Part shown: positions 6,420-62,709 of the stretch, in pieces
Layout of the letters: every line of letters begins with the position of its first letter
Numbering within the stretch: the first letter of the stretch is position 1
NCBI GenBank assembly: GCA_021372535.1
Contig: JAJFUH010000107.1
Span: 5,768-69,767 of the forward strand
From: a bacterium
GTDB taxonomy: Bacteria > Latescibacterota > Latescibacteria > Latescibacterales > Latescibacteraceae
Length of the DNA: 64,000 bases
Reading direction: 5' to 3'
Position numbers and translations under genes: made by a program
The notes under the pieces: model-generated
Database searches by the model: none
What the model was told of the DNA's origin: nothing
The model's input: the letters and a program-made list of their open reading frames with translations, nothing else

Positions 6420-6493
6420 TGCCCCGTCGTCCAATGGCAAGACAGCTGACTCTGGATCAGCCTATCGAGGTTCAAATCCTTGCGGGGCAGCCA
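6420..6493 (+). tRNA. tRNA-Gln (anticodon CUG)
   Basis: I folded it by hand. The acceptor stem is TGCCCCG/CGGGGCA, with the U1:A72 pair typical of bacterial tRNA-Gln. The anticodon stem is GCTGA/TCAGC with loop CTCTGGA, giving anticodon CUG. The T-arm is GAGGTTCAAATCCTT (GAGG/CCTT). G73 and CCA are encoded. Confidence 0.85.
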
Positions 6494-18215: not shown

Positions 18216-18270
18216 ACCGAAATGAATTCGAATAAGAGAATAAATAGTTATCTTTATTATTGTGTCAGTT

Positions 18271-18405
18271 TGTGTTAGAAATGGTAGAATATAAAGGCAA
18301 TGGTGTGAATAGTAAACTTAGATATAATTTTTATAAGTGCAGAGGCCATGTAGCATTAGATTGTTTATTAATGATTTACGATTATTTATTGAATCCCCTT
18401 AAAAT
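18271..18405 (+). repeat. Conserved AT-rich island-end sequence, copy A. It is homologous to 59012..59167.
   Basis: I aligned it by hand to the segment preceding the partial tRNA-Ala. The identity is about 75–80% (by eye) over roughly 135–150 bp (tgtgtcagtttgtgttagaaatggt...ataagtgcagaggccatgtagcattag... versus gtgtgccagtttgtgccagaaatggtg...ataaatgcagaggccatgacgtattag...). Confidence 0.8.
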
Positions 18406-18406
18406 G

Positions 18407-18453
18407 TGACTCTGGATCAGCCTATCGAGGTTCAAATCCTTGCGGGGCAGCCA
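18407..18453 (+). repeat. Direct repeat of the tRNA-Gln 3' half (from the anticodon stem to CCA). It is a candidate attR.
   Basis: Its 47 nt are identical to 6447..6493. The downstream ~60 bp, including a terminator hairpin, are about 85% identical to the sequence downstream of the intact tRNA-Gln. Confidence 0.9.
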
Positions 18454-18474
18454 TAATAAAACAAATATTATCTG

Positions 18475-18507
18475 CCGCTTGCAGGGTGTTTTGCAAGTGG
18501 TTTTTTT
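18475..18507 (+). terminator. Rho-independent terminator (a repeat-associated copy)
   Basis: The hairpin CCGCTTGCA...TGCAAGTGG is followed by TTTTTTT. It is homologous to the terminator at 6515..6551. Confidence 0.6.
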
Positions 18508-22561: not shown

Positions 22562-22578
22562 TTTGGAATGATATATTC

Positions 22579-22740: not shown

Positions 22741-22834
22741 GTTTGAAAGTTGGATTGTAAGCGGATGCATAATAGTGTTAATTTAATATGGTATTTTGTA
22801 TAATATAACTTAAAACATAAATATAGGAGCAATC

Positions 22835-23215: not shown

Positions 23216-23266
23216 GCCATAGAATCAATCATTTCGACAATAGTTTCGGCCAGCCGGATTGTATGG

Positions 23267-24601: not shown

Positions 24602-24604
24602 ACT

Positions 24605-24958
24605 ATGAGGGTATCAAAACTAATACTTTTGCCTTTAATTTTTCTTTTCATGACATTATTATCCGAAAATAACATTGTTTATTTGTCGAAGGGAAATGCA
24701 AACTATCAAAAAGAGTTTTCATATATTGAAAACACTTTGAATACAGAGAATATACAAGTGATCTCCATGGAAGATATGTCCATGACTATTGGAGGTTGCA
24801 GTGGTGGTACATGCAGCAATAATTCACATTCATGTCCATCAGGATGCACACATTATGATGCCGATAAATGTAGCGGAATCATTGGAAGCTGCGTAAATGA
24901 TTGTTGGTCAATTCTATGCAGCTGCCCAGGTTACTATACAATGGATAATGGATGTTAA
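24605..24958 (+). CDS. Small secreted Cys-rich protein (117 aa) with an internal double-glycine-leader-like motif
   Basis: The ATG lies 4 nt after the blaR1-2 stop. It has an N-terminal signal/TM segment. The motif ISMEDMSMTIGG matches the LSxxELxxIxGG pattern. It is followed by a 53-aa core with 11 Cys and abundant Ser/Thr. Confidence 0.5.
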   Translation: MRVSKLILLPLIFLFMTLLSENNIVYLSKGNANYQKEFSYIENTLNTENIQVISMEDMSMTIGGCSGGTCSNNSHSCPSGCTHYDADKCSGIIGSCVNDCWSILCSCPGYYTMDNGC

Positions 24959-24993
24959 TAATTATATTAATAAATTACAGGAGGTTATATTCT

Positions 24994-25959
24994 ATGACAA
25001 TATATATAAGACGAGTATTTTTACCTTTAATATTTTTGTTATGCGGTTTTAATCCTGTTTTCGCTCAAGAGTCTTTGGAATTGAAGGCAATAATCGATGG
25101 AGCTGATATTGGCGATATGATGATTACGAGTGGAAACGGGAATCTTGTATATGAATATACCCGTGTGGATTCAATGAGCTCAAGAGCCCTTGAACTTGAC
25201 CAGGAGCATATTGCTTCGGCAGATACGGATACTAAAACAATTATTCGCAATTACGAAAAATTAAACATTACATTTTCTTTCAGCGGTTCAAAAGTGCGAT
25301 GCAATGAAAGCTCATATAATCGTCTGCCCAACGGAAAATGGTACCCTCAGGACTGGCAGTGGGCATATAATGGCGAGAAACTTGACCTTCTCCGTCTTGA
25401 CGGATTAGATGAGAATGGGCTTATAGTTCCCAGAGGTTCTGTAAGAACCGAATATGTATCACGACTTAACAGGTTTGACCCAAGATACAACGGTATGAAA
25501 ATAATGGGTACATCGGTAGGTACTTTCCTCAGGGGATCAATAGGTGACAAGAATGTTGAAAATATAAAACTGATGCCAGAAGAAACCATTGACAGTATCC
25601 CTTGTAAAGTTGTTCGTGGCTATGTCCCAAACACAACAGAAACAATTACAGTCTGGCTTGCTCCCGGTATCATGAATCACCCCAAACGTATCGAATATCT
25701 TTCCGGTGATGAATTAACTGTTGTCAACAATAATTTCAAAGAGTTCAAGGGAGGCATCTGGTTCCCGGAGTCTGTTGCGAAAGAATTGTTCTATCGTGGT
25801 CCTGCCGGCAAATGGATTCTCTATGTAAAAGAAAAAATCACGATTCAGAATGATTTTGATATCAATATTGATTTGCCCGCCTCTCTTTTTGAAATACAAT
25901 TCCCGGCCGGTCTCTGGGTATACGATTACCGTCTTGGTGAAAAGATTGAAAGTAAATAA
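24994..25959 (+). CDS. Secreted protein of unknown function, possibly with a LolA-like/DUF4292-like fold
   Basis: There is an AGGAGG RBS at 24978–24983, 10 nt before the ATG, and a signal peptide. The ORF track extends it to 24952. The fold is suggested only weakly. Confidence 0.4.
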   Translation: MTIYIRRVFLPLIFLLCGFNPVFAQESLELKAIIDGADIGDMMITSGNGNLVYEYTRVDSMSSRALELDQEHIASADTDTKTIIRNYEKLNITFSFSGSKVRCNESSYNRLPNGKWYPQDWQWAYNGEKLDLLRLDGLDENGLIVPRGSVRTEYVSRLNRFDPRYNGMKIMGTSVGTFLRGSIGDKNVENIKLMPEETIDSIPCKVVRGYVPNTTETITVWLAPGIMNHPKRIEYLSGDELTVVNNNFKEFKGGIWFPESVAKELFYRGPAGKWILYVKEKITIQNDFDINIDLPASLFEIQFPAGLWVYDYRLGEKIESK

Positions 25960-25969
25960 ATTCTTAAAT

Positions 25970-26716
25970 ATGGGTAATATTATGTGTAATCTGATGATTG
26001 AAAAAAAAATTGATGAGAAAAATTATCTTATTAATAAGATAAATTCAAATAATATTCTGTCACAAGGTATTGTCCATGACCTGAATAATGTTTTAACAAT
26101 GCTGCAGGGTAATCTTACCCTGGCAAAAATGGAGATAAACAGGAGTGATAAAGCTATTGAAATACTGAACAATGCTCAGCAAGTATGTGAACGATCAAAA
26201 GGTCTTATACGTCAATTGTCGGTTTTATATGATGATAACTCGAACAAAAAAGTGAAATTATCTGTTTCTGAAATAATCAGATATACTGCAAAATTTTGTG
26301 TTATGAGCACCAAAATATATTGTGAGTTTTCATTACCCAAAAACTTATGGTTCATTAATGCCAATGAAGGACAAATTAATCAGGTTTTTACAAATTTAAT
26401 TCTCAATTCAATCCAGGCGATGCCGAAAAGCGGAGTTATTAAGATTAAAGCTAAAAATACTATTGTTGATAATAATAACGATATACCGCTTAACGGTAAC
26501 TTTGTGAAAGTTACCGTTAAAGATAATGGGTATGGTATATCTGAAGATATTCTGCCAAAAATCTTTGATCCGTACTATACCACAAAGAAAAATGGTAAAG
26601 GATTGGGGCTGTCGATAGTTAATTTCATTATTCAAAAACATAATGGCTATATCAGCGTAGACTCGAAAGTTGGTGAAGGTACGTCGTTTGATGTATATTT
26701 ACCGGCAATTATTTAA
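25970..26716 (+). CDS. Cytoplasmic orphan histidine kinase (HisKA + HATPase_c only)
   Basis: It has an H-box (IVHDLNNVLTMLQGN) and N/G1/G2 boxes (NLILNSIQAM, VKDNGYGI, GKGLGLSIV). The start is placed at the internal Met at 25970, because the longer ORF overlaps the upstream gene. Confidence 0.65.
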   Translation: MGNIMCNLMIEKKIDEKNYLINKINSNNILSQGIVHDLNNVLTMLQGNLTLAKMEINRSDKAIEILNNAQQVCERSKGLIRQLSVLYDDNSNKKVKLSVSEIIRYTAKFCVMSTKIYCEFSLPKNLWFINANEGQINQVFTNLILNSIQAMPKSGVIKIKAKNTIVDNNNDIPLNGNFVKVTVKDNGYGISEDILPKIFDPYYTTKKNGKGLGLSIVNFIIQKHNGYISVDSKVGEGTSFDVYLPAII

Positions 26717-27053
26717 GGGTAACGCTTTTCAAGGATGTTTACGCTATAAATCAAAATTTCTTTTCGAAAACTTATTTATGAATAGTAGTATCTTGTTATG
26801 CTGTAATAATAAAGAACAAAAAATCTTGTATATAGGACTTAACAGGCGTTATAATTTTATCCCTTTTCTTTACCCTGACTCACCCCTCGATTCCCTCTAT
26901 ATGACATAGTAACTCTTGACCAAAGAGAGAGGAGAAGCGCCCGATAAAATATTTTTATCAAGGTATTATGCGCGAAGTGAGTTTCCACGGTTAACGTCGG
27001 AAATTATTATATTCTTCTGCTAATAAATGATGCGCACTACTTTTTCCCCCCTC

Positions 27054-45530: not shown

Positions 45531-45559
45531 TTGACAATGATGAACGAATAATGTATATT
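45531..45559 (+). promoter_or_regulatory. Near-consensus sigma70-like promoter for tRNA-Ala (TTGACA-17-TATATT)
   Basis: The -10 element ends 11 nt before the tRNA 5' end. Confidence 0.45.
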
Positions 45560-45570: not shown

Positions 45571-45647
45571 GGGGCTATAGCTCAGCTGGGATGAGCGCCT
45601 GACTGGCAGTCAGGAGGTCGTCGGTTCAATCCCGACTAGCTCCACCA
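45571..45647 (+). tRNA. tRNA-Ala (anticodon GGC)
   Basis: I folded it by hand. The acceptor stem GGGGCTA/TAGCTCC has the G3:U70 alanine identity pair. The anticodon stem is CCTGA/TCAGG with loop CTGGCAG, giving anticodon GGC. The T-arm is GTCGGTTCAATCCCGAC. CCA is encoded. Confidence 0.85.
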
Positions 45648-46522
45648 ATATTTTCGATTTGTTTATTTTAAATTGGAGACATATCCCCACGAGGTTCCTT
45701 TTAGTCCGGAATTCCCTATATCAAAATCATAAGCAGTAAAATTTCTTTTCATATTCTTATTTTAAACGATTACTATCCTATTAATAATCTTATGCAAGTA
45801 TTTTCTTCACGTTGATTTGGATGTAGCCCTCCGGTTTTCTCACTGGCAGATAAATGAATTTTTCCTCGAATCAATCCCGTCTGATGCAGTAGAAAGAGAG
45901 AATAAAAACTTCTCATAGAGAAACATATAATGAAAACGAAAGCAGCCATAATAACAATCGGATTTGTCTGGTCAACAACCGTGTATGTCATGCTTTTCGC
46001 ATCAGTTTGAAGTCTGCTGATAACCATCGTCTGAATTTATCCTTTTCCTTCAAATTAATAAGGCGCCTTTAATGGGTGCCTTTTTTGTTGGGGAAAGTGA
46101 TGGCCTGGTAAATGGTAATTACATATAAGGCGAAAAAAGCGTGTATCAAACCGTATGAGAAAAACAGAGGACTTATTATGTGATAAGTATAAAAATATAG
46201 GGGAAGTGGGTGTTTTACCATGATACTATCGTCGAGAAATTCTTTTATTCAAGCTTCCACAAAATAGCAATACACCCTCTAAAAAACTTCACTAACACAC
46301 CGACTGTTCCAGATTACGAACATTGTTCGGATTTCGGAACATTCCGTTGAGCCGATGAATGATATCGAATCGGAATCGACGTTTCTCATTCCGTTATTTA
46401 ATAAAATAAAAATCAATTAACATCAATAATAACAAATAAATGAATTCTGCACAGTTTTTAAAATGTATGAATGGTATTGTTTTTGCTCTTCTCATGGAAT
46501 AAAAAAACGAAAGGAGAATTAC

Positions 46523-48112
46523 ATGAAAAGAGCAGTTATGATTTCTTGTTTTTCGTTTCTGTCTGTACTTGTCTGTACATATTCGGTTCCGGCTCAGACG
46601 TTGAATACTATTCTGGCCAAGCTCCAGACGGTAGAAGAACGTCTCAACGAGCACGAAAAAAACTCCGGAGCTGAAATATCGAAGCAGATCGATAAAGCTC
46701 TTGCAGTCAGACTCGCATCAATCGAGTCTGACCGAAAAAGCGAGCAGGTGCAGGTGAAGTCGAATTTTGCGAAGGTGGACAGCCTTGCCATCAATACCCA
46801 GATCGATTCTACGATAGCCTCTCTCAGGTCTCAAATCGACCTCCTGCAGGAAAGCGTTAAGGAAATGAAAAATACCATAGAAAATCAGGCTGATGACGAG
46901 AGCAAAGCTGTCGCAATGGCACCACAAAATAATCCTCTCATGACGGCTGCAGGCATGATAAACCACGGAGATCAGGCAATTACAACTACCAGTTCTATCG
47001 AATCGGTTACACCAGTAAACAATTCGACAATGGTCGAAATTGATTATACCCGGTCTCCTTTGGAAATCGAGCATGTTTATTCCGGTGAGTATTTTTCCAA
47101 AATTCACGGGGGTATGGAAAAAAAGAACCGGGGAGATTATCGGGGTAACTTTGATCTGACTGTTTCGGCAAGCAGCGAAGCGCTGGGACTTTGGAAAGGT
47201 ACAACATTCAGCGTTGACTTTCAGAACGGCAATGGCAGAGGTATAAGCGAATCGTATGTTGGTGACTACCAGGTTCTCAGTAATATCGATGCGGGTAACT
47301 TTACCCAGATAAGCGAATACACTCTCTGTCATTCTTTTGCCGGTAACCGGTTCATGATAAAACTCGGCAAACAGGATGCGAATGAGGATTTCAATGTCGC
47401 TGACAACGCGGGCGATTTTATCAATTCTTCATTTGGTATCATGCCGAATGTCCCCCTTCCGACTTTCCCCGATCCCGGGCTTGGAATATCGGTATTCTAC
47501 ACTCTTTCTGACAACATACAAATTAAAGCGGGACTCTTCGACGGCCTTAGTCATGGAGGTTCGTGGGGATTTAACACCGCTTTCAGTTCCCACGGGGAAA
47601 GCAGTTCGGTCATGGAATTATCATATGGTTCGAGCCTTCTGCCGTTCTTTAAAAAACGGGGCACATTCAAAATTGGACTCTGGCGTCACGGCGGTCTGTA
47701 TGCACCTGTTGCAGGAACTGGAAGCAAATCGGAGAACCTTGGCGGATATTGTATCTATGAACAGGGGATTTTGGGTTATGCTGAATCTGATCATCACCAT
47801 GTAGATATGTTTTTGCAGTATGGATATGCTGACAGGGAAATAAGCGCCATACCAAATTATGCAGGAATCGGATTCAAAGCAGACGGTCTCATTACGGGAC
47901 GTCCTGATGACAGTATGGGTATCGGAGCAGCATGTGCGCTTGTTAACCCTGAAATGAAAGACATGAAAGGAGAAACAGCATTTGAATACTATTACCAGAC
48001 AACCATAATGGGTAAACTGACATTACAGCCCGATGTACAATATATTATTAATCCCGGAGGTATGTATGACAATGCACTCGTAACCGGTATGCGGGTATAT
48101 ATTAATTTTTAA
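46523..48112 (+). CDS. Outer-membrane porin with an N-terminal coiled-coil segment (OprB-like or phosphate-selective-like; family uncertain)
   Basis: It has an AAGGAG RBS, a signal peptide, a ~100-aa coiled coil and a beta-barrel-like C-terminus ending in ...YINF. The ORF track start is 46463. Confidence 0.5.
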   Translation: MKRAVMISCFSFLSVLVCTYSVPAQTLNTILAKLQTVEERLNEHEKNSGAEISKQIDKALAVRLASIESDRKSEQVQVKSNFAKVDSLAINTQIDSTIASLRSQIDLLQESVKEMKNTIENQADDESKAVAMAPQNNPLMTAAGMINHGDQAITTTSSIESVTPVNNSTMVEIDYTRSPLEIEHVYSGEYFSKIHGGMEKKNRGDYRGNFDLTVSASSEALGLWKGTTFSVDFQNGNGRGISESYVGDYQVLSNIDAGNFTQISEYTLCHSFAGNRFMIKLGKQDANEDFNVADNAGDFINSSFGIMPNVPLPTFPDPGLGISVFYTLSDNIQIKAGLFDGLSHGGSWGFNTAFSSHGESSSVMELSYGSSLLPFFKKRGTFKIGLWRHGGLYAPVAGTGSKSENLGGYCIYEQGILGYAESDHHHVDMFLQYGYADREISAIPNYAGIGFKADGLITGRPDDSMGIGAACALVNPEMKDMKGETAFEYYYQTTIMGKLTLQPDVQYIINPGGMYDNALVTGMRVYINF

Positions 48113-48178
48113 ACAGATGAAGTAACGTTAGCTTCATGTATCATTTAATCACTCACTCTTGGAAAAGGAAATGTCTCG

Positions 48179-49828
48179 ATGTTCACAAACATGAAACTTT
48201 CAGCGAAAATGACCCTGATGGGCGCAGGCATTGTCTTTGCTCTCGGGATACTCGGATTTATCGTGTACCATTCCAATTCGACCATCAAGGCAACAATGGA
48301 AATCAGCGACGAGATGACCAGTGAAAACAATATCGTCCAGGATACCAGAGAAAGCGAACTCCGTATGATCAGCCTTGTGAGAGCGGCGCTTCTTGACAGG
48401 GAAGATGGTGAAATTGAATCAGGAAGAATGAATACTATTACCCAGTCCGTGGAAACGATAAAAAAGAATCTCGCCGAAATAGAAAAATTAGCGGATAATG
48501 ACGTGGAAAAAGTAAATCTTAAAATAGCCAGCGATAATCTCGATCTCCTGACGAAGATAATTCAGGAAGATTTGGTTAAACTTATTGCACTCTACAAAAA
48601 CAAGGATACCGACCTTGCGAAACTTGAACAGCAGGTGCAGGTTCTCGATTCCCAAATTGAGGAATATGGCAATAAAACAGAAGAGAGTCTTGGTAAAATC
48701 GAAGAATACACGTCCGGGGAGATGAATAAGGCCTCCACAGGTCTTGACAATGCGATTGCGACATCCTCCACGCTGGCACTCATCACGTTCGTGCTCTCTG
48801 TCGTCGGCATTATCCTCGTATTCACCCTCTTTGCGCGTGGTATTATTAAATCACTCAACAACGTTATCGAGGGTTTGACGGCGGGAGCAGAACAAGTTGC
48901 ATCAGCATCACGTCAGGTTTCCGCATCAAGCCAGCAGCTTGCCGAGGGCGCCAGCGAACAGGCGTCGAGTCTCGAAGAAACCTCATCGTCCATTGAGGAA
49001 ATAGCCTCCATGGGCCGTCAGAATGCGGAGAATTCCAACCAGGCCAAGACTATGATGAATGAGGCGCGGAAGATAGTTGAGAAGGTGGATAACCAGATAC
49101 GCGGCCTGGTCGAAGCTACTGAAAAGATCGAAAAGTCGAGTGTGGAAACCGGTAAAATCATTAAAACCATTGATGAAATTGCCTTCCAGACTAACCTGCT
49201 GGCGCTTAATGCTGCGGTCGAGGCCGCACGCGCTGGAGAGGCCGGTGCCGGATTCGCAGTTGTTGCTGACGAGGTGAGGAACCTGGCTATGAGAGCCTCA
49301 GAAGCGGCAAAAAACACCTCCGTCCTGATCGAAAACACCATCAACGCTGTCAAGACCGGAAGCGAGCTCACCAGCTCGACCATGGAAGCGTTTAAAGAAA
49401 ACTCAGAGATATCGGAGAAGATAGGGAAACTAGTCGACGAAATCGCAGCCGCTTCAAACGAACAGGCGCAGGGGCTTGTACAGATTAACACGGCTATTTC
49501 ACAGATGGACCAGGTGACGCAAACAACCGCTGCCAATTCCGAGGAATCGGCTTCTGCCAGCGAAGAGCTCACTTCTCAGGCCTCAGAGCTCAATTCCATG
49601 GTCGAGATGCTTGTTGTTATTGTCGGAGGGAGCAACGGTAACGGTAACGGGCGTGGAGCCATTGCACGGGACGATCATCCGAAAAAGCACTCAGCCGTAA
49701 GTACCAAACTGAATACGCATAATCCGGCTCCGCGGGCGTTGCTTAAAACGAAGTTGAAAACCCATGCGAAGGTTGTCAAGGCCAATGATGTAATTCCGTT
49801 GGATGAAGAAGAGTTTGAAGCGTTCTAA
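48179..49828 (+). CDS. Methyl-accepting chemotaxis protein
   Basis: It has two TM helices and a HAMP-like region. The highly conserved MCP signalling-domain core is present ([36 protein letters not shown]). Confidence 0.8.
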
Positions 49829-49866
49829 TAACGGGAGTTAATTCACGTAAGATAACCTGATGCAAT

Positions 49867-49900
49867 GAAGCGGGGGGTACATTGTGCCCCCCGTTATTTA
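49867..49900 (+). terminator. Rho-independent terminator after the MCP gene
   Basis: A GC-rich hairpin CGGGGGGTACA...TGTGCCCCCCG is followed by TTATTT. Confidence 0.5.
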
Positions 49901-50305
49901 GTCGGTTTGAAAGACTAATTAAACCATATACTTTATTCTTTACAGATATTAAATATCATATAATTGGTATTATATAAGAATTTCACTCTATCTGTTGCGC
50001 GGGGATAACTCTGTCAAGTTAAATTCTTCCAATTCCACTCTCACACTGACTCGCTCTAATGTGCAGAATAATAACGAGTCATCGACAAGGCCTTTCGTGA
50101 GTCCCGCTATGAGATCAAACGAAGGGAAATCCACAGGTTGACAATCAGTATTGAAGCTATCAGCATACAAAGTCTTGTACACCTCGGGCGTGTCACCGTA
50201 ATAGTATGCGTTTTAAATAGCAATTGCTTTGGGCGATACTACTATGCAACATTTTCTCAGGCGATTAGTTTAAAGGGATAATATGAGCTTATAGAGGAAT
50301 AAATC

Positions 50306-53300
50306 ATGACTGCAAAAAAACAAGGCAAAGCGAAAAAATTCGAAACTGCGCTCGCTTCCATGTTCACCGACATCACCGATGGCAGGCTGGCCAAAGAAAC
50401 ACTGCGGGAGAGCGTGGAAATCTATCGATCCATTCTCAAAGCCTCTCCCGATGCCATAACGACCACCGATCTTGATGGTCACATCCTCATGGTTTCGCCC
50501 GCGGCATTGACTATGTTCGGTTACGAACGAGAGGATGAGCTGGCAGGGCATTTGGTTACCGATTTTATCTTCCCCGAGGATCGGGATAAAGCATTATCAA
50601 ATATTGCCCTTATGTTACAGGGTATCATGACGGGGCCGGGTGAATACCGTGGATTGCGTGCTGATGGAAGCACCTTTGAAATAGAGGCAAACGGAGAGTT
50701 AATCCGGGGCGCTGACGGGCAACCTACCAACATAATTTTCGTTATCCGTGACATCACCGGCCGTAAACGTGCAGAAAAGGAGTTGCGGAAGAGCGAGGAA
50801 TTGTTTAAGTCGATGGTGCACAATAGTGATGACTTGACGATTCTGACTGACGATAAAGGCATCGTGATCTATCTCAGTCCTCAGTGTGAAAGCATTCTCG
50901 GATACCCGAGCGACAAATTCATTGGGCAAACCATGCCGGACATTATTTATCCTGACGATTTCGCCAAATGTCAACTTGCATGGGAACAAGTTTTCCACCA
51001 CGGGCAAGAACTGCGCGATTTTGAATATCGTATTATTGATGGTAAACAAGAAGTGCGGTGGATTTCTCATTCAGCAAGACTGGTCAAGGTGGATGGCAAG
51101 GTTTTGGGCATGCAGAACACCATCCGCAACATCACCAAACGTAAACAGGGGATGAGAGCGCTCAGGGAAAGTGAGGAGCGGCACCGGACCATACTCCAGA
51201 CGGCCATGGACGGTTTCTGGCTGGTAGACATGCAGGGACGCCTGCTGGAAGTTAATGATGCCTATTGCCGGATGAGCGGCTATAGCGAGCAGGAACTGCT
51301 GGCCATGAGCATTCCCGATCTTGAAGTCACTGAATCGGCCGCCGACACAGCCGCCCACATCCAAAAGATCATAGCACAGGGCGAGGATCGTTTTGAGTCC
51401 CGGCACCGCCGCAAGGACAGGAGCATTTTTACCGTCGAGATAAGCGTCAAGTACCGACCTGTCAAAGGGGGGTTGTTTGCGGGTTTTATGCGCGACATCA
51501 CCGAGCGCAAGCGCTTAGAGGATGTGCTGCGGATGAGCGAGGAGAAATACCGCAGCCTGGTAGACAACTCCAACGAATCCATACTGGTGGCTCAGGACGG
51601 TCTGCTCAAATTTGTCAATAACAGAACTTCAGAGCTGACCGGCTATTCGGAGCAAGAACTAACTGCTATGCCGTTTTCTGAATTCATCCACCCGGATGAT
51701 CGGGACATGGTGGTTGGAAATTACTTAAGTAGAATCAAAGGAGAAGCCCTTCAGCCCAAGTATGAGTTCAGAATTACTACTCGTGATGGTGTTGTCAAAT
51801 GGGTAGAGATCAACGCCGTCATGATTGAGTGGGAAAGTAAACCGGCTACACTGAATTTTATCAGCGATGTCTCCGAACGCAAACGAACCGAGGAGGCGCT
51901 GCGTGAAAGTGAAGATAAATATCGTACCATTGTGGAACAGTCGGTTATGGGGATAGGGATATCGAAAGGAAATCAGATCATATTTGCCAATAAGGCTTTA
52001 TTACGAATGTTAAATTACGATGATCTTGAGGAATTTAAAAAAATACCTTTATTAGACCACGTTGCCCCATCTTCGCGTCAATTAATCACTGAACGGATGA
52101 CGATGATAGCTGAAGGGGAAATCCCTCCACCGGAATATGAATACGATATAATATCTAAGGGAGGGCTGATCAGGACGTTTCTCGCTTCCAACATTCGTTT
52201 ATCATTAGGAAAAGAGTTTTATATTCAATCAACTTTCCAGGACATTACAGAGCGCAAGCGAGCGGAGGAGGCTCGTGAACGTACCCATAATGAAATGGAG
52301 AATCTCCTTAACAATTTAACCGATGCTATTTTTTCGGTGGATGCTGTTAAAAATACAATGATGATTGTTTCACCCGCACACCAGACAGTGTTTGGCTACC
52401 CGCCATCAGAATTTTTTAAAAATCCGCAATTATGGTACGAACAAGTTATCCCGGAAGATAAACCAATCATAGATGCGGGTTATCCGGTTTTATTTGCAGG
52501 TAATAATCTTCAGCATCAGGTCAGGATAGTTCATCCCGATGGGCAAATACGATGGATTGAAGCAAGATTGAGACCGACACTGGATATTGAAGGAAAACTT
52601 GTTCGGGTAGATGGGATTGTTGCCGACATTACCGAGCGCAAACGGATAGAGGAGGCGCTGCGGGCGAGCGAAGAACGCTTCAGAAAAGTCTTTGAAAGGG
52701 CTCACCTGGGCATTGTCATCACCTCGCCATCATTTAAATTTGAGAAAGTTAATCCGGCTTTTTGCCGCTTAATGGGATACTCGGCGGATGAACTCATTTC
52801 CATGACATTCGCAGATATAACACACCCGGATTACCTCAAGAAGGATATGGAGAATGTAAAGAAAGTCGGACGGGGCGAAATACCCTTCTATCAAACCGAG
52901 AAGCGATATATCAAAAAGAACGGCGATGTACTATGGGGTAACCTTATCGTTTCGAGTATCCGCGATGAGCACGGCGCGTTGCAATATTATCTTTCCATGG
53001 TAAATGACATTACCGAACGCAAGATAGCGGAAGAGGCGCTGCGCGAAGTGAATCAACGCTTTGAAGCCCATATATCCAACTCCCCCCTCGCTGTTATCGA
53101 GTTCGACCCCCAATTTCGTGTCGTCAAGTGGTCTGGCGCGGCAGAACGAATATTCGGCTGGAGTCAGGATGAAATCCTCGGCAAAGCAATTACTGAAATG
53201 CCCTGGGTCTTCGAGGAGGACATGGAATCAGTACAACAAGTGTCTGAAGACATGCTTACCGCCCGGCGTCCAAGTAACCTGAACATCAACCGCAATTACA

Positions 53301-56300
53301 CAAAAAACGGATCGATTATTCAATGCGAATGGTATAACTCTGCTATCTATGATGAGCAGGGACAAATGAGATCAATCTTATCACTCGTACTGGACATCAC
53401 CGAACGAAAATGGGCAGAACGTCGTCAATTACTTTCGGCTGAAATCCTGGGGATTCTTAATGAGGATATTGCCTTCTCTGATGCTGTTAAAAATATTCTC
53501 ATCGCAATCAAACAGGAAACGGGATTCGATGCGGTTGGGATTCGCCTTCGAACCGGCGATGACTTTCCGTATTTTGTCCAGAACGGTTTTTCCGAGGATT
53601 TTCTGCGCACGGAGAATACACTCATTGTCCGTGAAAAAGGTGGCGATGTCTGCAGGGATGAAAACGGCAACATTTCCCTCGAATGCACCTGCGGGCTGGT
53701 ACTTTCCGGGAAAACCGATCCGTCAAATCCTCTTTGTACACCGGGGGGAAGTTTCTGGACAAACGATTCGATTCCTCTCTTAGACCTTATGGCCGACCAG
53801 GATCCGAGGCTTCATCCGCGGAACCGCTGCATACATGAAGGCTTCCAGTCCGTTGCGCTGATTCCCATCCGCGTGAAAGAGGAGATTGTTGGTCTGCTGC
53901 AGCTCAATGATCGTAAAAAAGGGCGCTTAACGCTCGACAGGATTCGCTTTTTTGAGGGGATCAGCGAAAGCATTGGCATAGCGATTATGCGCAAACAGTC
54001 TGAAGATGCGCTGCGGGAGAGCGAGGAGCGATTAAGGCTGGCGCAGAAAGCCACCAACGATGTGATATGGGATTGGAATATTGTCAATGATCAACAGATG
54101 TGGAATGAATCGGGTGCTGTCGTTTTCGGCTGGACAGATATAGTAACAGTTCCGCAAACCGCTGCCTGGTGGGTTGAGAAAGTGCATCCAGAAGATCGTC
54201 AGCGAGTCGATGATGGATTTTTCACCGTAATAAATAATCCAACCGAATCCCGCTGGCAAGATGAATACCGGTTTTTAAAGTCCGATGGAAGCTACGCCCA
54301 TGTGGTGGACAGAGGGTATGTTATTCGGGATACTCAAGGCAAGGCTGTCCGCATGATCGGCGCCATGCTTGACATCACCGAGCGGAAGAAAGCTGAAGAG
54401 TTGCTTTTTCTTTCAAAGCAAAAGTTGGAACAACACGTTAAGCAGACACTGTTCGCTGTCATCGAATGGGACATCGATTTCAGAGTCAGAGAATGGAATA
54501 CCGCAGCCCAACAGATTTTCGGTTATACAAAAGAAGAAGCTCTGGGACAGCATGCCAGCTTCATTATTTCCGAATCCGCAAGAGAACATGTGGATGCTGT
54601 ATGGCAGGCACTTCTGGTTCAAAAGGGCGGTCGCAGGTCGATGAACATGAACATCCGAAAAGACAGCCAGATTATTTCCTGCGATTGGTTCAATACTCCT
54701 TTGACGGATACTCAGGGAAAGACTACAGGTGTAATTTCACTCGCCATGGATGTTACCGCAAAAATACAAGCTGAGGATGCGTTGAAAAAGAGTGAGATAC
54801 GATATCATGAACTGTTTAGCAATATAAGCAGCGGAGTTGCTATATATGAAGCGCGAGATAATGGGAACGATTTTATTTTCAAGGACATGAACAAAGCCGG
54901 CGAACGAATAGATAACGACCGGAGGGAAAATGTTTTAGATAAGAGCGTTTTAGAGGTACGGCCGGGGATTAATGAATTTGGGCTGCTCGATGTATTTAAA
55001 CGAGTATGGAAAACCGGTATTCCCGAATATTTACCCGTGAGTCTATACCATGATGAGCGGTTGACAAAATGGTATGAAAATTTTGTCTATAAGCTTCCTA
55101 CCGGTGAAATAGTAGCAGTCTACGATGATGTGACCGAGCGTAAAAAGTCTGAAGATGCGCTGCGGGAGAGCGAGGAGCGCTTTCAGCAGCTGTTCGATCA
55201 TATGGCAGATGGAGTTGCCGTCTATCAGGCGGTGGATGAGGGTCAGGATTTTGTCATTGTGGACATCAACAAAACGGGACAATCCCTCAGCCATGTTCGC
55301 CTGGACGAGGCGGTTGGCCGACGGGTCACCGAGGTCTTTCCGGGAGTGGAGCGGATAGGGCTTCTGGACGTATTCCGTCGCGTCTGGCGAACCGGCAGGC
55401 CAGAGCATCATCCGCTCACGGAGTACAAGGATGGCCGCATCAAGGAGTGGGTGGAGAACTATGTATATAAGCTTCCTTCGGGATTGATCGTCGCGATTTA
55501 TGAAGACACTTCCGAGAAGCATCGGGCGGAGGAGTTACTCAGGGAAAGCGAGGAACGGCTTGATTCGATAGTGCGTACAATCCCTGACATCATTTATCGA
55601 CTCGATTCTGAAGGGAAAATTGTATTTGTAAATAGTGCAGTAGAACAGTACGGTTATACAACTGATGAGTTAATCGGCAGAGATATACTTGATTTTGTAT
55701 GTCCCCGTGATAGGGAAAAGGCTTCATACAGACTTAATGAGAGAAGAACTGGTGACAGGCATACGAAATCTTTCGAGATACGGTTGATGCGTAAGGATCA
55801 GGTCTGTATAGAATTTGATATAAAATCAGATATAGTTTCCAGCATGCCGGTATTTAGTGTTGATGCCGAAGGGATCTATATAGCCCAGGGGACCAAAAAT
55901 CAGGTGTTTTTGGGTACACAGGGAATCGCCCGCGACATCACCGACCGTAAGCATTACGAGGAGGAAAAGGCTAAACTCGAAGCCCAACTCGCCCATGCCC
56001 AGAAGATGGAGTCGATTGGCTTGCTGGCCGGCGGTATCGCCCACGACTTCAACAATATTCTCTCGATCATTCTCGGATTCGCCCAGATCGCAAAAGAGGA
56101 CACTATACCTCCCGGCAGTTCCATCATCGAATCTCTCGATGAAATCGAAAAGGCGGGATTACGGGCAAGCGATCTTGTCAAACAGATACTGGCTTTCAGC
56201 CGGAAATCCCAGACCGAGCGTCAGCCGTTCAAGGTCGGCCTCGTTATCAAGGAATGCATAAAAATGCTCAGGGCTTCCCTGCCTTCTACCATCGATATCA

Positions 56301-57127
56301 AGTACACAGATACATCATCGTCCGATCTGATTCTCGCCGGGCCCGCTCAGATAGAACAGATCGTCATGAATCTCAGTACAAACGCCAGCCATGCAATGCG
56401 CGATAAAGGTGGAGTGTTAAAGGTTACCCTGGAAGACGTTGTCTTCGATACCAATAACATAACATTGTATCCCGGCCTTGTCCCCGGTGAATATTCAAAA
56501 ATCACGTTCTCGGATACCGGATACGGTATGGACCCCCAAATACTGCCCCATGTGTTCGAGCCGTACTTCACAACGAAGAAAAAAGGCGAAGGAACCGGTT
56601 TGGGACTGTCGGTGGTTTATGGAATCGTGAAAAGCCTGGGAGGGAATATCAGCGTATCGAGCACGATTGGCGTCGGAACAACATTCGAGATTCTGATTCC
56701 GAAGTACCTGAAGAAAGAAATTACGACAGAGGAAAAGCCTGCCTTGTTCAAAGGAGGAAGGGAAAGTATACTAGTGGTTGATGATGAATCGCAGATTGTC
56801 GATATTGAAATGAAGATGTTGAAAAATCTCGGGTATTACGTCACCGGATTTACGAAAAGCGAAGATGCGCTCGGTTTCTTCACCGCCAATTCCGGTTCAT
56901 TCGATGTTGTGATCACCGACCAGACGATGCCGATGATGACGGGTGACGAATTAGCCGCAGAGCTGTTAACGATTTGTCCTGATCTTCCAATAATTCTTTG
57001 TACGGGGCACAGCGATCGTATCGATGAAAAATATATCAGTAAAATCGGTATAAAGGCGCTGTTGTTCAAGCCGGTTACCGTCGCCAATCTGGCTAAGACC
57101 ATCAGAAAGGTTCTGGATGATGAATAA
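50306..57127 (+). CDS. Giant (2273 aa) multi-PAS/GAF hybrid sensor histidine kinase with a C-terminal receiver domain
   Basis: At least 12 PAS/PAC modules are separated by conserved ITERK(R/K)AEEALRESEER linkers, and there is a GAF-like segment. The HisKA H-box (GIAHDFNNILSII) is followed by HATPase_c boxes (GTGLGLSVVYGIV) and a C-terminal REC domain (ILVVDDE...DQTMPMMTGDE). Confidence 0.85.
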   Translation: MTAKKQGKAKKFETALASMFTDITDGRLAKETLRESVEIYRSILKASPDAITTTDLDGHILMVSPAALTMFGYEREDELAGHLVTDFIFPEDRDKALSNIALMLQGIMTGPGEYRGLRADGSTFEIEANGELIRGADGQPTNIIFVIRDITGRKRAEKELRKSEELFKSMVHNSDDLTILTDDKGIVIYLSPQCESILGYPSDKFIGQTMPDIIYPDDFAKCQLAWEQVFHHGQELRDFEYRIIDGKQEVRWISHSARLVKVDGKVLGMQNTIRNITKRKQGMRALRESEERHRTILQTAMDGFWLVDMQGRLLEVNDAYCRMSGYSEQELLAMSIPDLEVTESAADTAAHIQKIIAQGEDRFESRHRRKDRSIFTVEISVKYRPVKGGLFAGFMRDITERKRLEDVLRMSEEKYRSLVDNSNESILVAQDGLLKFVNNRTSELTGYSEQELTAMPFSEFIHPDDRDMVVGNYLSRIKGEALQPKYEFRITTRDGVVKWVEINAVMIEWESKPATLNFISDVSERKRTEEALRESEDKYRTIVEQSVMGIGISKGNQIIFANKALLRMLNYDDLEEFKKIPLLDHVAPSSRQLITERMTMIAEGEIPPPEYEYDIISKGGLIRTFLASNIRLSLGKEFYIQSTFQDITERKRAEEARERTHNEMENLLNNLTDAIFSVDAVKNTMMIVSPAHQTVFGYPPSEFFKNPQLWYEQVIPEDKPIIDAGYPVLFAGNNLQHQVRIVHPDGQIRWIEARLRPTLDIEGKLVRVDGIVADITERKRIEEALRASEERFRKVFERAHLGIVITSPSFKFEKVNPAFCRLMGYSADELISMTFADITHPDYLKKDMENVKKVGRGEIPFYQTEKRYIKKNGDVLWGNLIVSSIRDEHGALQYYLSMVNDITERKIAEEALREVNQRFEAHISNSPLAVIEFDPQFRVVKWSGAAERIFGWSQDEILGKAITEMPWVFEEDMESVQQVSEDMLTARRPSNLNINRNYTKNGSIIQCEWYNSAIYDEQGQMRSILSLVLDITERKWAERRQLLSAEILGILNEDIAFSDAVKNILIAIKQETGFDAVGIRLRTGDDFPYFVQNGFSEDFLRTENTLIVREKGGDVCRDENGNISLECTCGLVLSGKTDPSNPLCTPGGSFWTNDSIPLLDLMADQDPRLHPRNRCIHEGFQSVALIPIRVKEEIVGLLQLNDRKKGRLTLDRIRFFEGISESIGIAIMRKQSEDALRESEERLRLAQKATNDVIWDWNIVNDQQMWNESGAVVFGWTDIVTVPQTAAWWVEKVHPEDRQRVDDGFFTVINNPTESRWQDEYRFLKSDGSYAHVVDRGYVIRDTQGKAVRMIGAMLDITERKKAEELLFLSKQKLEQHVKQTLFAVIEWDIDFRVREWNTAAQQIFGYTKEEALGQHASFIISESAREHVDAVWQALLVQKGGRRSMNMNIRKDSQIISCDWFNTPLTDTQGKTTGVISLAMDVTAKIQAEDALKKSEIRYHELFSNISSGVAIYEARDNGNDFIFKDMNKAGERIDNDRRENVLDKSVLEVRPGINEFGLLDVFKRVWKTGIPEYLPVSLYHDERLTKWYENFVYKLPTGEIVAVYDDVTERKKSEDALRESEERFQQLFDHMADGVAVYQAVDEGQDFVIVDINKTGQSLSHVRLDEAVGRRVTEVFPGVERIGLLDVFRRVWRTGRPEHHPLTEYKDGRIKEWVENYVYKLPSGLIVAIYEDTSEKHRAEELLRESEERLDSIVRTIPDIIYRLDSEGKIVFVNSAVEQYGYTTDELIGRDILDFVCPRDREKASYRLNERRTGDRHTKSFEIRLMRKDQVCIEFDIKSDIVSSMPVFSVDAEGIYIAQGTKNQVFLGTQGIARDITDRKHYEEEKAKLEAQLAHAQKMESIGLLAGGIAHDFNNILSIILGFAQIAKEDTIPPGSSIIESLDEIEKAGLRASDLVKQILAFSRKSQTERQPFKVGLVIKECIKMLRASLPSTIDIKYTDTSSSDLILAGPAQIEQIVMNLSTNASHAMRDKGGVLKVTLEDVVFDTNNITLYPGLVPGEYSKITFSDTGYGMDPQILPHVFEPYFTTKKKGEGTGLGLSVVYGIVKSLGGNISVSSTIGVGTTFEILIPKYLKKEITTEEKPALFKGGRESILVVDDESQIVDIEMKMLKNLGYYVTGFTKSEDALGFFTANSGSFDVVITDQTMPMMTGDELAAELLTICPDLPIILCTGHSDRIDEKYISKIGIKALLFKPVTVANLAKTIRKVLDDE

Positions 57128-58529
57128 AGCAGTGAAAAACGATATTCCAAAAGCCGGTATATTGATTATCGACGATGACAAGGCTTTCTGCAAGATGCTG
57201 TCGGTGAAGCTGAAATCGTCAGGGTATGGTACAGTTTCCGTTCAAACTATCGCGGAAGGGCTGCGGACTGTTACAGAAGGTGCGTTCGATGTCGTGTATC
57301 TCGACGTCAATCTTCCCGACGGGAACGGACTCGATCTGCTGCCCCGATTGCGGAGCATCGAATCATCGCCCGAGGTTATCATTATCACGGGAGCGGGAAA
57401 ACCCGATGGCGCGGAGCTGGCCATAAAGTGCGGCGCGTGGGATTATATCCAGAAAGGTTCCACACTGAACTCGATGATACTTCCCCTCATCCGTGCACTC
57501 GATTACAGGAAAGAAAAGAAAAAGTCATCGATTCCAATCTGCCTTGAGCGTTCCCATATTATCGGAGACAGTGAAGCGATCAATGTCAGCCTCGACAGGA
57601 TTGCGAAAGCGGCGAACAGCGATACCAATGTCCTGATAACCGGCGAGACAGGCGTGGGGAAAGAACTCTTCGCTCAGGCCATTCACAAGAACAGCCGTCG
57701 CAGCGAAAATAATTTCGTTGTAGTCGACTGCGCATCGCTTCCTGAAACCCTTATAGAGAGCATCCTTTTCGGACATAAAAAAGGCGCATTCACCGGAGCG
57801 CACGAGAATCAGAGCGGACTTGTCAAACAAGCCGATGGCGGTACTCTGTTTCTCGATGAAATAGGCGAACTTCCCCTCTCTATTCAGAAAAGTTTTCTCA
57901 GAGTCCTTGAAGACCATTCGTTCATGCCGATAGGCAGCAGCAATCATATAATAAGTGACTTCAGGCTTATCGCGGCTACGAACCGGAACCTCGAAGAAAT
58001 GGTAAGGAGCGACATGTTCAGAGAGGATCTGCTTTACCGGATCAGAGCGTTCGTTATTGAAATCCCGCCACTGAGAGAGAGAAAAAGCGATATTATCAAT
58101 ATATGCTTTCACTATACCCGAAAGATTTGTGAACAATCAGGGATCGATATAAAAGGTTTTTCCCCCGAGTTTTTCGAGATTCTCATGTCATACGACTGGC
58201 CGGGCAATGTCCGCGAGCTGGTCCATATGATCGAAACGGCTATCACCGCCGCCCAGACCGAACCGATACTCCATACCTGGCACCTTCCAGTTGCCCTGCG
58301 GGCACAAATCGCCAGCGATTCCATGAAACATTCCGGAAAAACGGTATCACCTGAAACGTCTGTATCCGGGGATTTCCCGCCCATGAGAGAAGTTCTCGAA
58401 TTAACCGAAAAACAGTATATCCAGAATCTTCTTCGATTTACCCGGGGGAACAGGACGGTGGCATGCAGAATATCGGGTCTTTCACGAACCAGCCTTTTTA
58501 TCCGTATGAAGCACCACAATATCACCTGA
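57117..58529 (+). CDS. Sigma54-dependent NtrC-family response regulator (REC + AAA+ sigma54-activation + Fis-type HTH)
   Basis: It has the REC motif (ILIIDDD...DVNLPDGNG), the Walker A motif GETGVGKE, the sigma54-interaction signature ESILFGHKKGAFTGA and a C-terminal HTH. It overlaps the kinase stop by 11 nt. Confidence 0.85.
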   Translation: MMNKAVKNDIPKAGILIIDDDKAFCKMLSVKLKSSGYGTVSVQTIAEGLRTVTEGAFDVVYLDVNLPDGNGLDLLPRLRSIESSPEVIIITGAGKPDGAELAIKCGAWDYIQKGSTLNSMILPLIRALDYRKEKKKSSIPICLERSHIIGDSEAINVSLDRIAKAANSDTNVLITGETGVGKELFAQAIHKNSRRSENNFVVVDCASLPETLIESILFGHKKGAFTGAHENQSGLVKQADGGTLFLDEIGELPLSIQKSFLRVLEDHSFMPIGSSNHIISDFRLIAATNRNLEEMVRSDMFREDLLYRIRAFVIEIPPLRERKSDIINICFHYTRKICEQSGIDIKGFSPEFFEILMSYDWPGNVRELVHMIETAITAAQTEPILHTWHLPVALRAQIASDSMKHSGKTVSPETSVSGDFPPMREVLELTEKQYIQNLLRFTRGNRTVACRISGLSRTSLFIRMKHHNIT

Positions 58530-58927
58530 TCTTCCCGATAACCATCTCTTCATTTTTTTTAAAATACTCCCCGGTATTACGTATTGTGAACAGTGTTCCG
58601 AATACAGAACATGTCCGCCCTCCTGAATACGAACAGACCCAACATCGATATAACTTCTTGTTATACCGTATTTTACTTTGCCAGTTGTATTGATCCGATA
58701 TGGGTTCATTAGCACACATTTTTAAGGACCTTTATGACAGTTTATGTCAGAAATGTTTTGGTAAAAAATCGTTATATATTATTTTATCATAAATTTATGT
58801 TTGTACTGATTTTCAGACTATTTGTTACTATTTTTCGATGAATTGTAGAATTTGTGTAAATAATGGGAATGCATATGGTTACGCTGATTTTATTAAAAAA
58901 GAATAACTTATGAATATTTTAGTGTTT

Positions 58928-58972
58928 CTGCTTGACATACAGGAGGTCACTGGTTCAATTCCAACAGGTAAT
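58928..58972 (+). repeat. Degenerate tRNA 3'-half-like fragment (a decayed additional att copy?)
   Basis: The sequence TTGACATACAGGAGGTCACTGGTTCAATTCCAACAGG resembles the TGAC...AGGAGGTC...GGTTCAAT(C/T)CC... 3' half of tRNA-Ala. Its T-stem complementarity is broken. Confidence 0.35.
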
Positions 58973-59011
58973 AACTCAGGAGTATTAAGAGATTGCGATA
59001 TATTTTAATCT

Positions 59012-59167
59012 CTCTTCGAGTGTGCCAGTTTGTGCCAGAAATGGTGTGAAATAGAAGAAATTGTGGGAATGGTGAACTTTTTAAGGAATTTTTATAAATG
59101 CAGAGGCCATGACGTATTAGGTTTATTATTAGTGATTTGCGATGGTTGCTGAATCATTGCTCAATTG
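59012..59167 (+). repeat. Conserved AT-rich island-end sequence, copy B. It is homologous to 18271..18405.
   Basis: See copy A. It shares the conserved cores cagtttgtg..agaaatggt and ttataa(g/a)tgcagaggccatg. Both copies end ...tg immediately before the tRNA-derived TGACT. Confidence 0.8.
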
Positions 59168-59215
59168 TGACTGGCAGTCAGGAGGTCGCGAGTTCGATCC
59201 TCGCTAGCTCCACCA
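59168..59215 (+). repeat. Direct repeat of the tRNA-Ala 3' half (from the anticodon stem to CCA), with T-arm compensatory differences. It is a candidate attR.
   Basis: TGACTGGCAGTCAGGAGGTCGCGAGTTCGATCCTCGCTAGCTCCACCA compares with intact 45600–45647 TGACTGGCAGTCAGGAGGTCGTCGGTTCAATCCCGACTAGCTCCACCA. It starts at the same anticodon-stem position as the tRNA-Gln repeat. Confidence 0.85.
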
Positions 59216-59821
59216 AATTTCGTTTTTCACGGAAATCGTCTTTTCGCTGTATCTTCTTTTAATCCCCTGCCTCCCGATATTTCTAATAATATTAAAGGAT
59301 TCCTTGAGTTTATAAATAAACTCCCCATCTTTCCAGATCAGGTTCGAAAATACGATCTTTATTATTGCTTCGGTGGTTAAACAGTGACATAAGATTGTGT
59401 CATGTCGAACTTGTTTCGGCATCTATTCCAAATATCAGTATCATTATTTATTCGCCGGAGCAGTAATTTGCGTTTTTCTTCAGCATTCCGGCTCCAATGC
59501 GAGGGGATCAATCTCATTTTCCCGGAATATTTGATATTATGTATCGTGAACCATCCCTTTACATACCGGCATTATGCCTCACCAATTTTCCCGGTGATTT
59601 CCATCCGTGGACTCCTATAAAGGGGGAATATCGAAAGCTTGTTTAAATCAAGGAAGGGAGCGTAGAAAAGGATACGGAGTAGGCAACCGGAAAGCCAACA
59701 AATCTGATTATCTATCTATGGGATGTATAATGGGTATTTCGGTATTCAGGCAACAGCAGATCAAATCATATAAAAAAATAAACACATCCAAAGCTCTTAA
59801 GCCGCACACTTTTTCTGATTC

Positions 59822-61808: not shown

Positions 61809-62709
61809 ACACCCCTTTTTTAAATGGATATTTCGATAAACAGTAGTGCCCGCAAACTGGGTAGAAATTCTTTGCATATAATAACTTCTTTCTATTATAG
61901 ATGTCAATACTTTTATAGTTTAATGTTTTTAATTCAAGCAAATGACGATGTATTCTCCTGATGTAACAATATCTGGATACAGATGACTATAGAGCGTCGG
62001 GCCGAAAATGGCGAGAATATACCGGTCAGGACCTCCTGCACAAAAGTGGCTTTCGACTGGAACAACGATGCTTATTGTGTGAGACTATCTGACGATTCAA
62101 CGGTACTGCTGCATTCACGGGATCGTGGCGCGACTTTTACTGCATGGACGATACTGGGCACAGGCAGTTTCGACATTGAATAGTTTACCGACCACAAGCA
62201 AACGGACGGGCTGCCGTTATGAGCGCGATTCGTGAGTTACAACTGATTTCATTACTCTGTTACAGGTACAGCCCGGTTTCATCGTTTCACGTTTGATCAC
62301 ATTGTCTACAGTTAAACTTCCCGTATCTTTCCTGGTCAGGTGCACAAATATAGAATACAGATTAAGCAGCCAGAAAGCCAACAAATTCTTCAGAAAAATT
62401 ACTCGTATTTGGTTTAATGTATGCAAGACACTGACTCACAATTTCTGCATCTGAAGTCTTAGCAAAATCATAGATTAATTCCAGATTCCTTCTTGAGCCT
62501 GGCAAATTTGAATTATCAGGTAAGAAATCTGTTGCATACAGGATTTTCTCTTCTTGCTTCTTATGCGCGAAGCATCTTTTTAACATTTATGATAATAGAT
62601 TCAGCATGTATTCTTTTTTACGCCGAAGGTTTCCGTATGATGGCCTGTGTCACGGGCGGTATGGTACTTGTTTTCCCGTGAAGACATAGGATATGTAGGT
62701 TCTTTATTA

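Follow-up and report, generated by a model that had tools for sequence, protein, structure and literature searches.

A stretch of 64,000 nt from contig JAJFUH010000107.1 (positions 5,768 to 69,767 of the forward strand, hereafter the window) was analysed for a putative genomic island located at a tRNA-Ala gene. ARAGORN identified two tRNA genes over the window, tRNA-Gln(CTG) at 6420-6493 and tRNA-Ala(GGC) at 45571-45647, and Rfam agreed on both. Each gene is followed, many kilobases downstream, by a displaced copy of its own 3' half. The region at tRNA-Ala, which we call the Ala island, spans 13.6 kb and is the main subject of this work; the region at tRNA-Gln is its sister. The features of the Ala island and its immediate borders are as follows.

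45531..45559, + strand: sigma70-like promoter TTGACA-17-TATATT (11/12), 12 nt ahead of the intact tRNA-Ala
45571..45647, + strand: intact tRNA-Ala(GGC), probable attL (ARAGORN and Rfam); the G3:U70 pair is retained
45600..45620, + strand: 21-nt core identical in attL and attR, TGACTGGCAGTCAGGAGGTCG, holding the anticodon stem-loop
45648..46462, no strand: left end of the island, 815 nt without annotated gene, the position of the integrase in related loci
46463..48112, + strand: OprB-family porin, cargo (Pfam)
48179..49828, + strand: methyl-accepting chemotaxis protein (MCP), cargo (Pfam)
50306..57127, + strand: 2273-aa multi-PAS/GAF hybrid histidine kinase (PAS/GAF/HisKA/HATPase/REC), cargo (Pfam)
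57117..58529, + strand: NtrC-type sigma54 activator (REC, AAA+, HTH_8), cargo (Pfam); 11 nt overlap with the kinase stop
58927..58977, + strand: decayed tRNA-like 3' part with the loop TTGACAT, Val(GAC)-like (repeat search, local score)
58986..59167, + strand: right-end arm of the Ala island, putative P-arm of attP, homologous to 18233-18406
59168..59215, + strand: displaced tRNA-Ala 3' half with T-stem GCGAG/CTCGC, probable attR (sequence comparison)
59209..59364, + strand: flank block outside the island, 88% identical to the related contig L018 described below

The tRNA repeats and the shared right-end arm

The letters at 59168-59215 read TGACTGGCAGTCAGGAGGTCGCGAGTTCGATCCTCGCTAGCTCCACCA (48 nt) and match positions 45600-45647 of tRNA-Ala with 41/48 identities, the initial 21 nt being fully identical. 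The seven mismatches are three compensatory T-stem pairs (GTCGG/CCGAC in the intact gene, GCGAG/CTCGC in the fragment) and one T-loop base, and the T-arm of the fragment remains foldable. A 20-mer common to both copies, TGACTGGCAGTCAGGAGGTC, occurs twice on the + strand of the window and in none of 100 shuffles. The core at 45600..45620 is the likely crossover region. Directly upstream of the fragment no promoter-like site comparable to that of tRNA-Ala was found.

The two displaced fragments, Ala and Gln alike, begin with base 3 of the 5' strand of the anticodon stem (CC/TGACT in Ala, GC/TGACT in Gln), and TG directly precedes both. An earlier note, made from the letters of the window, had reported the intact tRNA-Ala with its 48-nt 3'-half copy, the compensatory changes in the T-arm, the common start of the Ala and Gln fragments with TG before each, and an architecture shared by the two islands; all of these observations were borne out by ARAGORN, Rfam and the comparisons above, and the last gains further support from the homologous arms of about 180 nt described next. 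The emphasis that the note placed on the identical start in the anticodon stem was misplaced, since anticodon-centred attP sites are the larger class in the Islander collection (2083/3919; PMC4383910) and such a start is not special.

The sister island at tRNA-Gln is delimited by the following features.

6420..6493, + strand: intact tRNA-Gln(CTG), attL of the sister island (ARAGORN, Rfam)
18233..18406, + strand: right-end arm of the Gln island (aligned homology 18233-18382), homologous to the Ala island arm
18407..18506, + strand: displaced tRNA-Gln 3' half with about 53 nt of downstream sequence, attR (repeat search)

The Gln repeat (6447-6546 against 18407-18506) has 89/100 identities with the leading 56 nt identical, and extends about 53 nt beyond the end of the tRNA, over what appears by eye to be a hairpin and T-run. 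The arm on the inner side of the fragment is homologous in the two islands: 58986-59143 aligns to 18233-18382 with 119/160 identities (74%) and a local score of 106, compared with 19±2.5 for shuffles and a maximum of 29 across 156 other AT-rich 200-nt segments of the same sequence. Over the final 24 nt before the Ala fragment the register is fixed and conservation is poor. Both arms carry a tandem TGTG(C/T)CAG repeat about 140-150 nt ahead of the core, seen in the Ala arm as a tandem TGTGCCAG repeat at 59021 and 59031, and both hold the conserved 13-mer block TTTTTATAARTGCAGAGGCCATG exactly 54 nt from TGTGACT, so that the overall pattern can be written TGTGYCAGTTTGTG ... TTTTTATAARTGCAGAGGCCATG-N54-TGTGACT. 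The TGTGCCAG repeats were also considered, on the opposite strand, as a sigma54 promoter; this was rejected, as the -12 TTGC is missing and GG is absent from the Gln copy. An inner-side arm common to two different tRNA fragments would be hard to explain otherwise than as the trace of sister elements with related attP arms. A comparison of the outer flanks of the two islands revealed nothing in common.

The 8.5 kb past the Gln fragment (18507-27000) have the lowest GC content in the window, with GC content at third codon positions (GC3) of 0.30-0.37, and encode a second BlaI/BlaR pair, proteins with a type IX secretion system (T9SS) tail and CBM9 proteins, and a C39 peptidase. This segment looks like a further island in tandem. 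A second Gln fragment was looked for near its end and was not found, the local scores there being at null level.

The tRNA-Ala site in other Latescibacterota genomes

Homologues of the gene on the downstream flank place the window in the Latescibacterota. A scan for either allele of the tRNA-Ala 3' half, with one genome per species, yielded seven loci; the titles say Latescibacterota for six and 'uncultured bacterium' for one. An intact tRNA-Ala is present in three (L007, L008 and L009) and a fragment in four (L006, L010, L011 and L012). All four fragments, which come from three other genomes, start at the identical TGAC, and L010 and L011 hold identical copies of the Ala fragment. The metagenome-assembled genome SI047_bin62 shows the same pairing as the window, with an intact tRNA of the GTCGG/CCGAC type (L008) and a fragment of the GCGAG/CTCGC type (L011). 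The arms of L010 and L011 are mutually alike, and the blocks that they hold in common with the window arms are (G/A)TTTGTG near -150, GC(C)ATG near -65 and TTATTA near -45. The arm of L006 is unrelated to the window arm.

Two of the loci have an integrase next to the tRNA sequence. In L009 (Zod_Metabat.481) an open reading frame (ORF) with the catalytic region of a tyrosine integrase lies 95 nt past the intact tRNA-Ala, and in L006 (SI047_bin62) a 399-aa tyrosine integrase lies 116 nt past the tRNA copy, whose other side is occupied by a terminase small subunit; the arrangement in L006 looks like an attP or a tandem junction. To judge from these loci, tRNA-Ala(GGC) is a recurrent integration site in the phylum. 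Entry is via the anticodon loop, and the elements that use it as a rule have a tyrosine integrase next to the tRNA.

Other observations were made at these loci. The order terminase small subunit, tRNA-Ala 3' half, tyrosine integrase at L006 1094-3234 (SI047_bin62, JABHYP010000387.1, 11,243 bp) is reminiscent of a small phage, or of a phage satellite, in which attP lies between terS and int. At L009 6683-7837, about 3.3 kb downstream of tRNA-Ala, lies an NtrC-type sigma54 regulator 56% identical to the window regulator; a match of this size is at the generic level of the family and may be a coincidence. In the tRNA-Ala island of L011 a BlaI/BlaR pair adjoins the arm, and has 44-49% amino acid identity to the pair in 18507-27000.

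Origin of the Ala island

We consider it probable that the 13.6-kb island was put into tRNA-Ala(GGC) by an anticodon-centred tyrosine integrase that it no longer encodes. Speaking for this are the direct repeat with its start in the anticodon stem and its identical core, the homology of the two arms, the recurrent fragment boundary and the tRNA-adjacent integrases of L009 and L006, the pairing of alleles in SI047_bin62, the blocks common to the arms of L010, L011 and the window, and the L006 match given below. The attP of the circular element would have consisted of the arm of about 180 nt, the anticodon stem-loop core (TGACT-N5-TCAG) and the element's own tRNA 3' half. Strand exchange in or beside the anticodon loop would have joined the 5' part of the host gene to the 3' half of the element, giving the tRNA at 45571-45647 (attL), and would have displaced the host 3' half together with the downstream flank by 13.6 kb to 59168-59215 (attR), with the element arm directly before it. 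The empty attB junction predicted by this scheme is ...GAGCGCCTGACTGGCAGTCAGGAGGTCGCGAGTTCGATCCTCGCTAGCTCCACCAAATTTCGTTTTTCACGG and the predicted circular attP junction is ...GCTCAATTGTGACTGGCAGTCAGGAGGTCGTCGGTTCAATCCCGACTAGCTCCACCAATATTTTCGATTTG. The tRNA-Gln island would be the product of a sister element with a homologous arm, whose target has the same TGACT...TCAG anticodon arm. The integrase may have been deleted from both islands, or may never have been carried, with recombination supplied in trans as for cis-mobilisable elements (CIMEs).

The scheme also gives a direction to the exchange of alleles. The GCGAG/CTCGC fragment is probably the host's original 3' end, now displaced, because the element arm lies on the inner side of the fragment and the sequence of attR that is 3' of the crossover comes from attB; the GTCGG/CCGAC half of the working tRNA-Ala would then be element-borne and the tRNA chimeric with a 5' part from the host. 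Two independent results agree with this assignment. The integrase-adjacent copy in L006 matches the 3' half of the intact window tRNA at 52/52 positions, including 4 nt beyond CCA (ATAT), and a decayed tRNA-Ala in L018, a contig (scaffold_1720 of ERZ23486233) that shares the right flank of the window, has the T-stem strand CCTCGC, which is that of the fragment allele. The earlier note had taken the distal copy for the attP-borne allele; the topology of the arm, the L006 match and the L018 strand together speak for the opposite direction. The lesson for annotation is that the working tRNA is probably a chimera with an element-derived 3' half, and that the partial tRNA would be the old host end and not a pseudogene of unknown origin.

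Together with Islander, Williams 2002 is reportedly the work to name for anticodon-centred (class A) tRNA-integrating genomic islands. In routine mapping of islands, a regenerated tDNA and a displaced fragment mark the ends (Hudson et al., 2015, PMC4383910), and the boundary of the fragment is expected in the anticodon loop, the T loop or the T/acceptor junction (PMC4383910). The Ala island resembles the Islander class A islands in having at its ends an intact, regenerated tDNA and a cognate 3' fragment in direct orientation on one replicon, in the start of that fragment within the anticodon stem (third base), a recognised sublocation, and in a functional replacement 3' half that the element would have supplied. 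It differs in that Islander requires an integrase gene within the candidate island and none lies here; furthermore, the host phylum is uncultured and poorly sampled. CIMEs are the category of elements that keep attL and attR and have lost the genes for integration and transfer, with 235 catalogued in ICEberg 2.0 (PMC6323972). Like the CIME L3catR3 of Streptococcus thermophilus (PMC6323972), the Ala island is flanked by attL and attR, retained at the sequence level only (the 21-nt core, and a right arm conserved with the sister), is without genes for integration and conjugation or transfer, and has a sister element with a related att sequence in the same genome. Unlike that system, a partner integrative and conjugative element (ICE) or integrative and mobilisable element (IME), or a cognate integrase, was not found within the 64 kb; mobilisation of the Ala island is putative; no remnant points to descent from an ICE or IME; and the integration target, in another phylum, is the anticodon loop of a tRNA. 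The elements at L009 and L006 share with the Ala island the target tRNA, the start of the fragment at the same TGAC and, for L006, the 3' half itself, whereas they carry a tyrosine integrase directly behind the tRNA copy, and L006 further has an unrelated arm and, as a neighbour, a terminase small subunit, which points to a phage or satellite.

Both tRNA islands centred on the anticodon and islands with att sites at their ends but no integrase are thus already well known, and the current understanding of how such islands work is unchanged by the present case. The Ala island is a real and well-bounded tRNA island that has no integrase and is accompanied by a sister at tRNA-Gln. It comes from an under-studied phylum, the Latescibacterota, for which it provides a case of site-specific island integration with precise bounds. 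The occurrence of one arm at two tRNAs with the same anticodon-arm sequence amounts to a small natural experiment on target change within an integrase family. To our knowledge the Latescibacterota have no cultured members, and almost no mobile elements have been described from them.

A number of results weigh against the proposed origin, and the most direct of them concern the integrase. Searching all ORFs of at least 110 aa across the 64-kb window for recombinase Pfam families returned none, and tblastn with the L006 and L009 integrases, which come from Latescibacterota and lie beside tRNA-Ala copies, gave only matches with E >= 1; the earlier note's statement that there is no integrase was therefore correct. 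An integrase gene or recognisable remnant was also looked for within 45648-46462 and none was found. The GenBank protein numbers are consecutive from the PAS protein through the TIM-barrel protein, and therefore there is no room for an additional annotated gene. The left ends of the Ala and Gln islands have no homology to each other. No integrase-bearing relative with the same arm is known, since scans with the arm motif returned 0 matches in the viral collection, 0 in the genome collection and 5 chance matches in the metagenome collection, none with a tRNA fragment or arm homology; scans of the viral collection for free attP forms of both tRNA halves likewise returned 0. Base composition was rejected as a marker of the island, as the GC3 of its genes (0.44-0.55) falls inside the range of the immediate flanks (0.44-0.59), and composition across the whole window is a mosaic. 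The decayed tRNA-like piece at 58927-58977, with a local score of 36 (null 17.4±2.7, maximum 28), begins at the anticodon stem like the two fragments and stops 9 nt ahead of the arm; it may go back to an earlier target or to a right end of composite make-up, and hints at the latter.

The flanks add further points. The earlier note had proposed to look for the empty site in relatives; a clean pair of sites with and without the insert was not found, but the right boundary coincides with a synteny breakpoint. Near the homologues of the downstream flank gene with 68-76% identity (L001-L005) there is no tRNA and synteny is lost. On the left, the closest relative of the FG-GAP flank gene is 76% identical and its contig stops 45 nt past the gene. 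Four relatives of the flank gene were obtained at >=90% identity (L018-L021). In L018 the YdjC and TIM-barrel gene pair (YdjC-TIM pair) has 88% DNA identity to the window and is accompanied by a 156-nt block that matches 59209-59364. The homology ends within the last 7 nt of the Ala fragment, at the CCA end (GCTCCACCA followed by AATTTCG in the window, GTCTACCA followed by AATTTCG in L018); this limit counts in favour of the proposed origin. Over the 10 kb past the breakpoint, the arm, the island genes and an intact tRNA are all missing from L018. It does have the decayed tRNA-Ala-like sequence already mentioned (11665-11722, + strand, tRNA positions 20-77; score 46 against 20±2.2), which lies about 145 nt beyond the homologous block in an orientation opposite to that of the window fragment and makes the L018 junction puzzling. 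L019 and L021 diverge from the window flank even earlier than L018. L018 and L019 are 99.9% identical over 9.5 kb and diverge completely from 51 nt after the TIM-barrel gene; going by the two contigs, this is an insertion or replacement polymorphism between near-identical strains.

Several of these points have led us to keep another explanation in view, namely that the right-hand 240 nt (relic, arm and fragment) are a composite or tandem scar, left behind by a separate element that has mostly been deleted. In that case the sensory genes (13 kb) would be an older island, or native DNA enclosed by a later rearrangement at a hot spot. The chief reason for keeping it is the decayed tRNA-like part that stops 9 nt short of the arm. 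It is also in keeping with the fact that only the right-end arm, and not the left end, is common to the two islands, with an island composition equal to that of the flanks, with the plasticity of the neighbourhood (the L018/L019 split and the inverted, decayed tRNA-Ala of L018) and with the documented occurrence of tandem arrays at tDNAs (PMC4383910). However, the anticodon loop of the relic is Val-like and not Ala-like, hence it is no older attR of the same site; the deletion would have needed end points that fall precisely at the fragment and where the arm starts; in the Gln island the arm is present without a relic, directly behind a cargo gene; and by topology the DNA between attL and attR is the element, barring extra events. 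We therefore regard a composite scar as unlikely. Closer to the proposed integration is a variant of it, differing in history and in present-day mobility, in which the island never bore an integrase and is a cis- or trans-mobilisable cassette with functional att sites that depends for its movement on an integrase from another part of the genome. That neither island has an integrase while the core is intact and the arm conserved at fixed spacing, that neither left end shows an integrase remnant, and that CIMEs by definition keep attL and attR without integration and transfer genes (PMC6323972) would all suit such a cassette. At just 74% identity, however, the arms could equally well be old copies that have diverged or sequences under constraint, and no excised or empty forms turned up in the scans of the viral, genome and metagenome collections; we give this variant only a slim chance.

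The remaining explanation dispenses with a mobile element and invokes an old partial duplication of the tRNA, or an assembly that joined strains at a repeated tRNA. In its favour, the genome was assembled from a metagenome, the search for an empty site found none, and the composition is undistinctive. Assemblers, however, normally finish on long k-mers that exceed 21 nt, and the exact repeat is only 21 nt. A duplication leaves unexplained the 180-nt arm common with the fragment of a different tRNA, and the identical boundaries in four other loci (three other genomes) and the integrases adjoining the tRNA copy in two related loci would likewise be left without an explanation. This alternative is largely refuted and very improbable. 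Integration by an anticodon-centred tyrosine integrase, since lost or provided in trans, is accordingly the reading that we prefer. An extension of it, which is speculative and which we think decidedly unlikely to hold, is that the arm plus tRNA 3' half is a portable docking module for a single trans-acting integrase encoded elsewhere. If it were true, TGACT-N5-TCAG would be recognised in several tRNAs (Gln-CTG, Ala-GGC and perhaps formerly Val-GAC), integrase-less cassettes such as sensory modules and BlaI/BlaR pairs would be shuttled between the tRNA sites of Latescibacterota, and the whole would be a cassette system akin to CIMEs that targets more than one tRNA.

Cargo genes and neighbouring features

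The cargo is an accessory signalling set of a porin, an MCP, a giant PAS kinase and a sigma54 regulator. Pfam upheld the gene list that the earlier note had drawn up. The description of these genes as a self-contained sensory module was left unsupported: sigma54-promoter-like sites are not enriched (36 against 45.8 expected) and none is placed convincingly inside the island, nor does the island contain a target gene or chemotaxis partners. The test for a prophage or phage satellite came out negative, the porin, MCP, kinase and regulator being the sole genes of the island.

Homologues of the sigma54 regulator start with a best match of 64% and then form a flat plateau near 55% over several phyla, in contrast to those of the downstream flank gene, which form a graded series from 76 to 68% within Latescibacterota. 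This difference speaks, if more weakly, in favour of an island. The kinase and the regulator have no relatives at 90% identity and the flank gene has four. An argument that the island genes lack close relatives was withdrawn, because every other window gene tested, housekeeping genes and an aminotransferase among them, is also a singleton at 90% clustering; all that the contrast shows is an unusual conservation of the YdjC-TIM pair. The sole apparent cluster partner of the MCP was found to be spurious. The neighbouring PAS protein, which lies outside the island, is just 22-24% identical to the island kinase, and the idea that the two are paralogues was rejected.

The YdjC-TIM pair itself has 87-88% DNA identity in L018-L021, and no other window gene tested has a relative at 90% protein identity. 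A 35-nt direct repeat (59669-59703 and 62352-62386, 83% identical) lies around the pair, and L018 and L021 likewise have a copy of this repeat beside the pair. The two genes may form a cassette that is itself mobile from one genome to another. Elsewhere in the window, two sets of collinear direct repeats (36879-37178/38517-38816 and 37765-37919/39394-39548), 77-79% identical and about 1.63 kb apart, indicate a tandem duplication near a GFO/IDH/MocA oxidoreductase gene.

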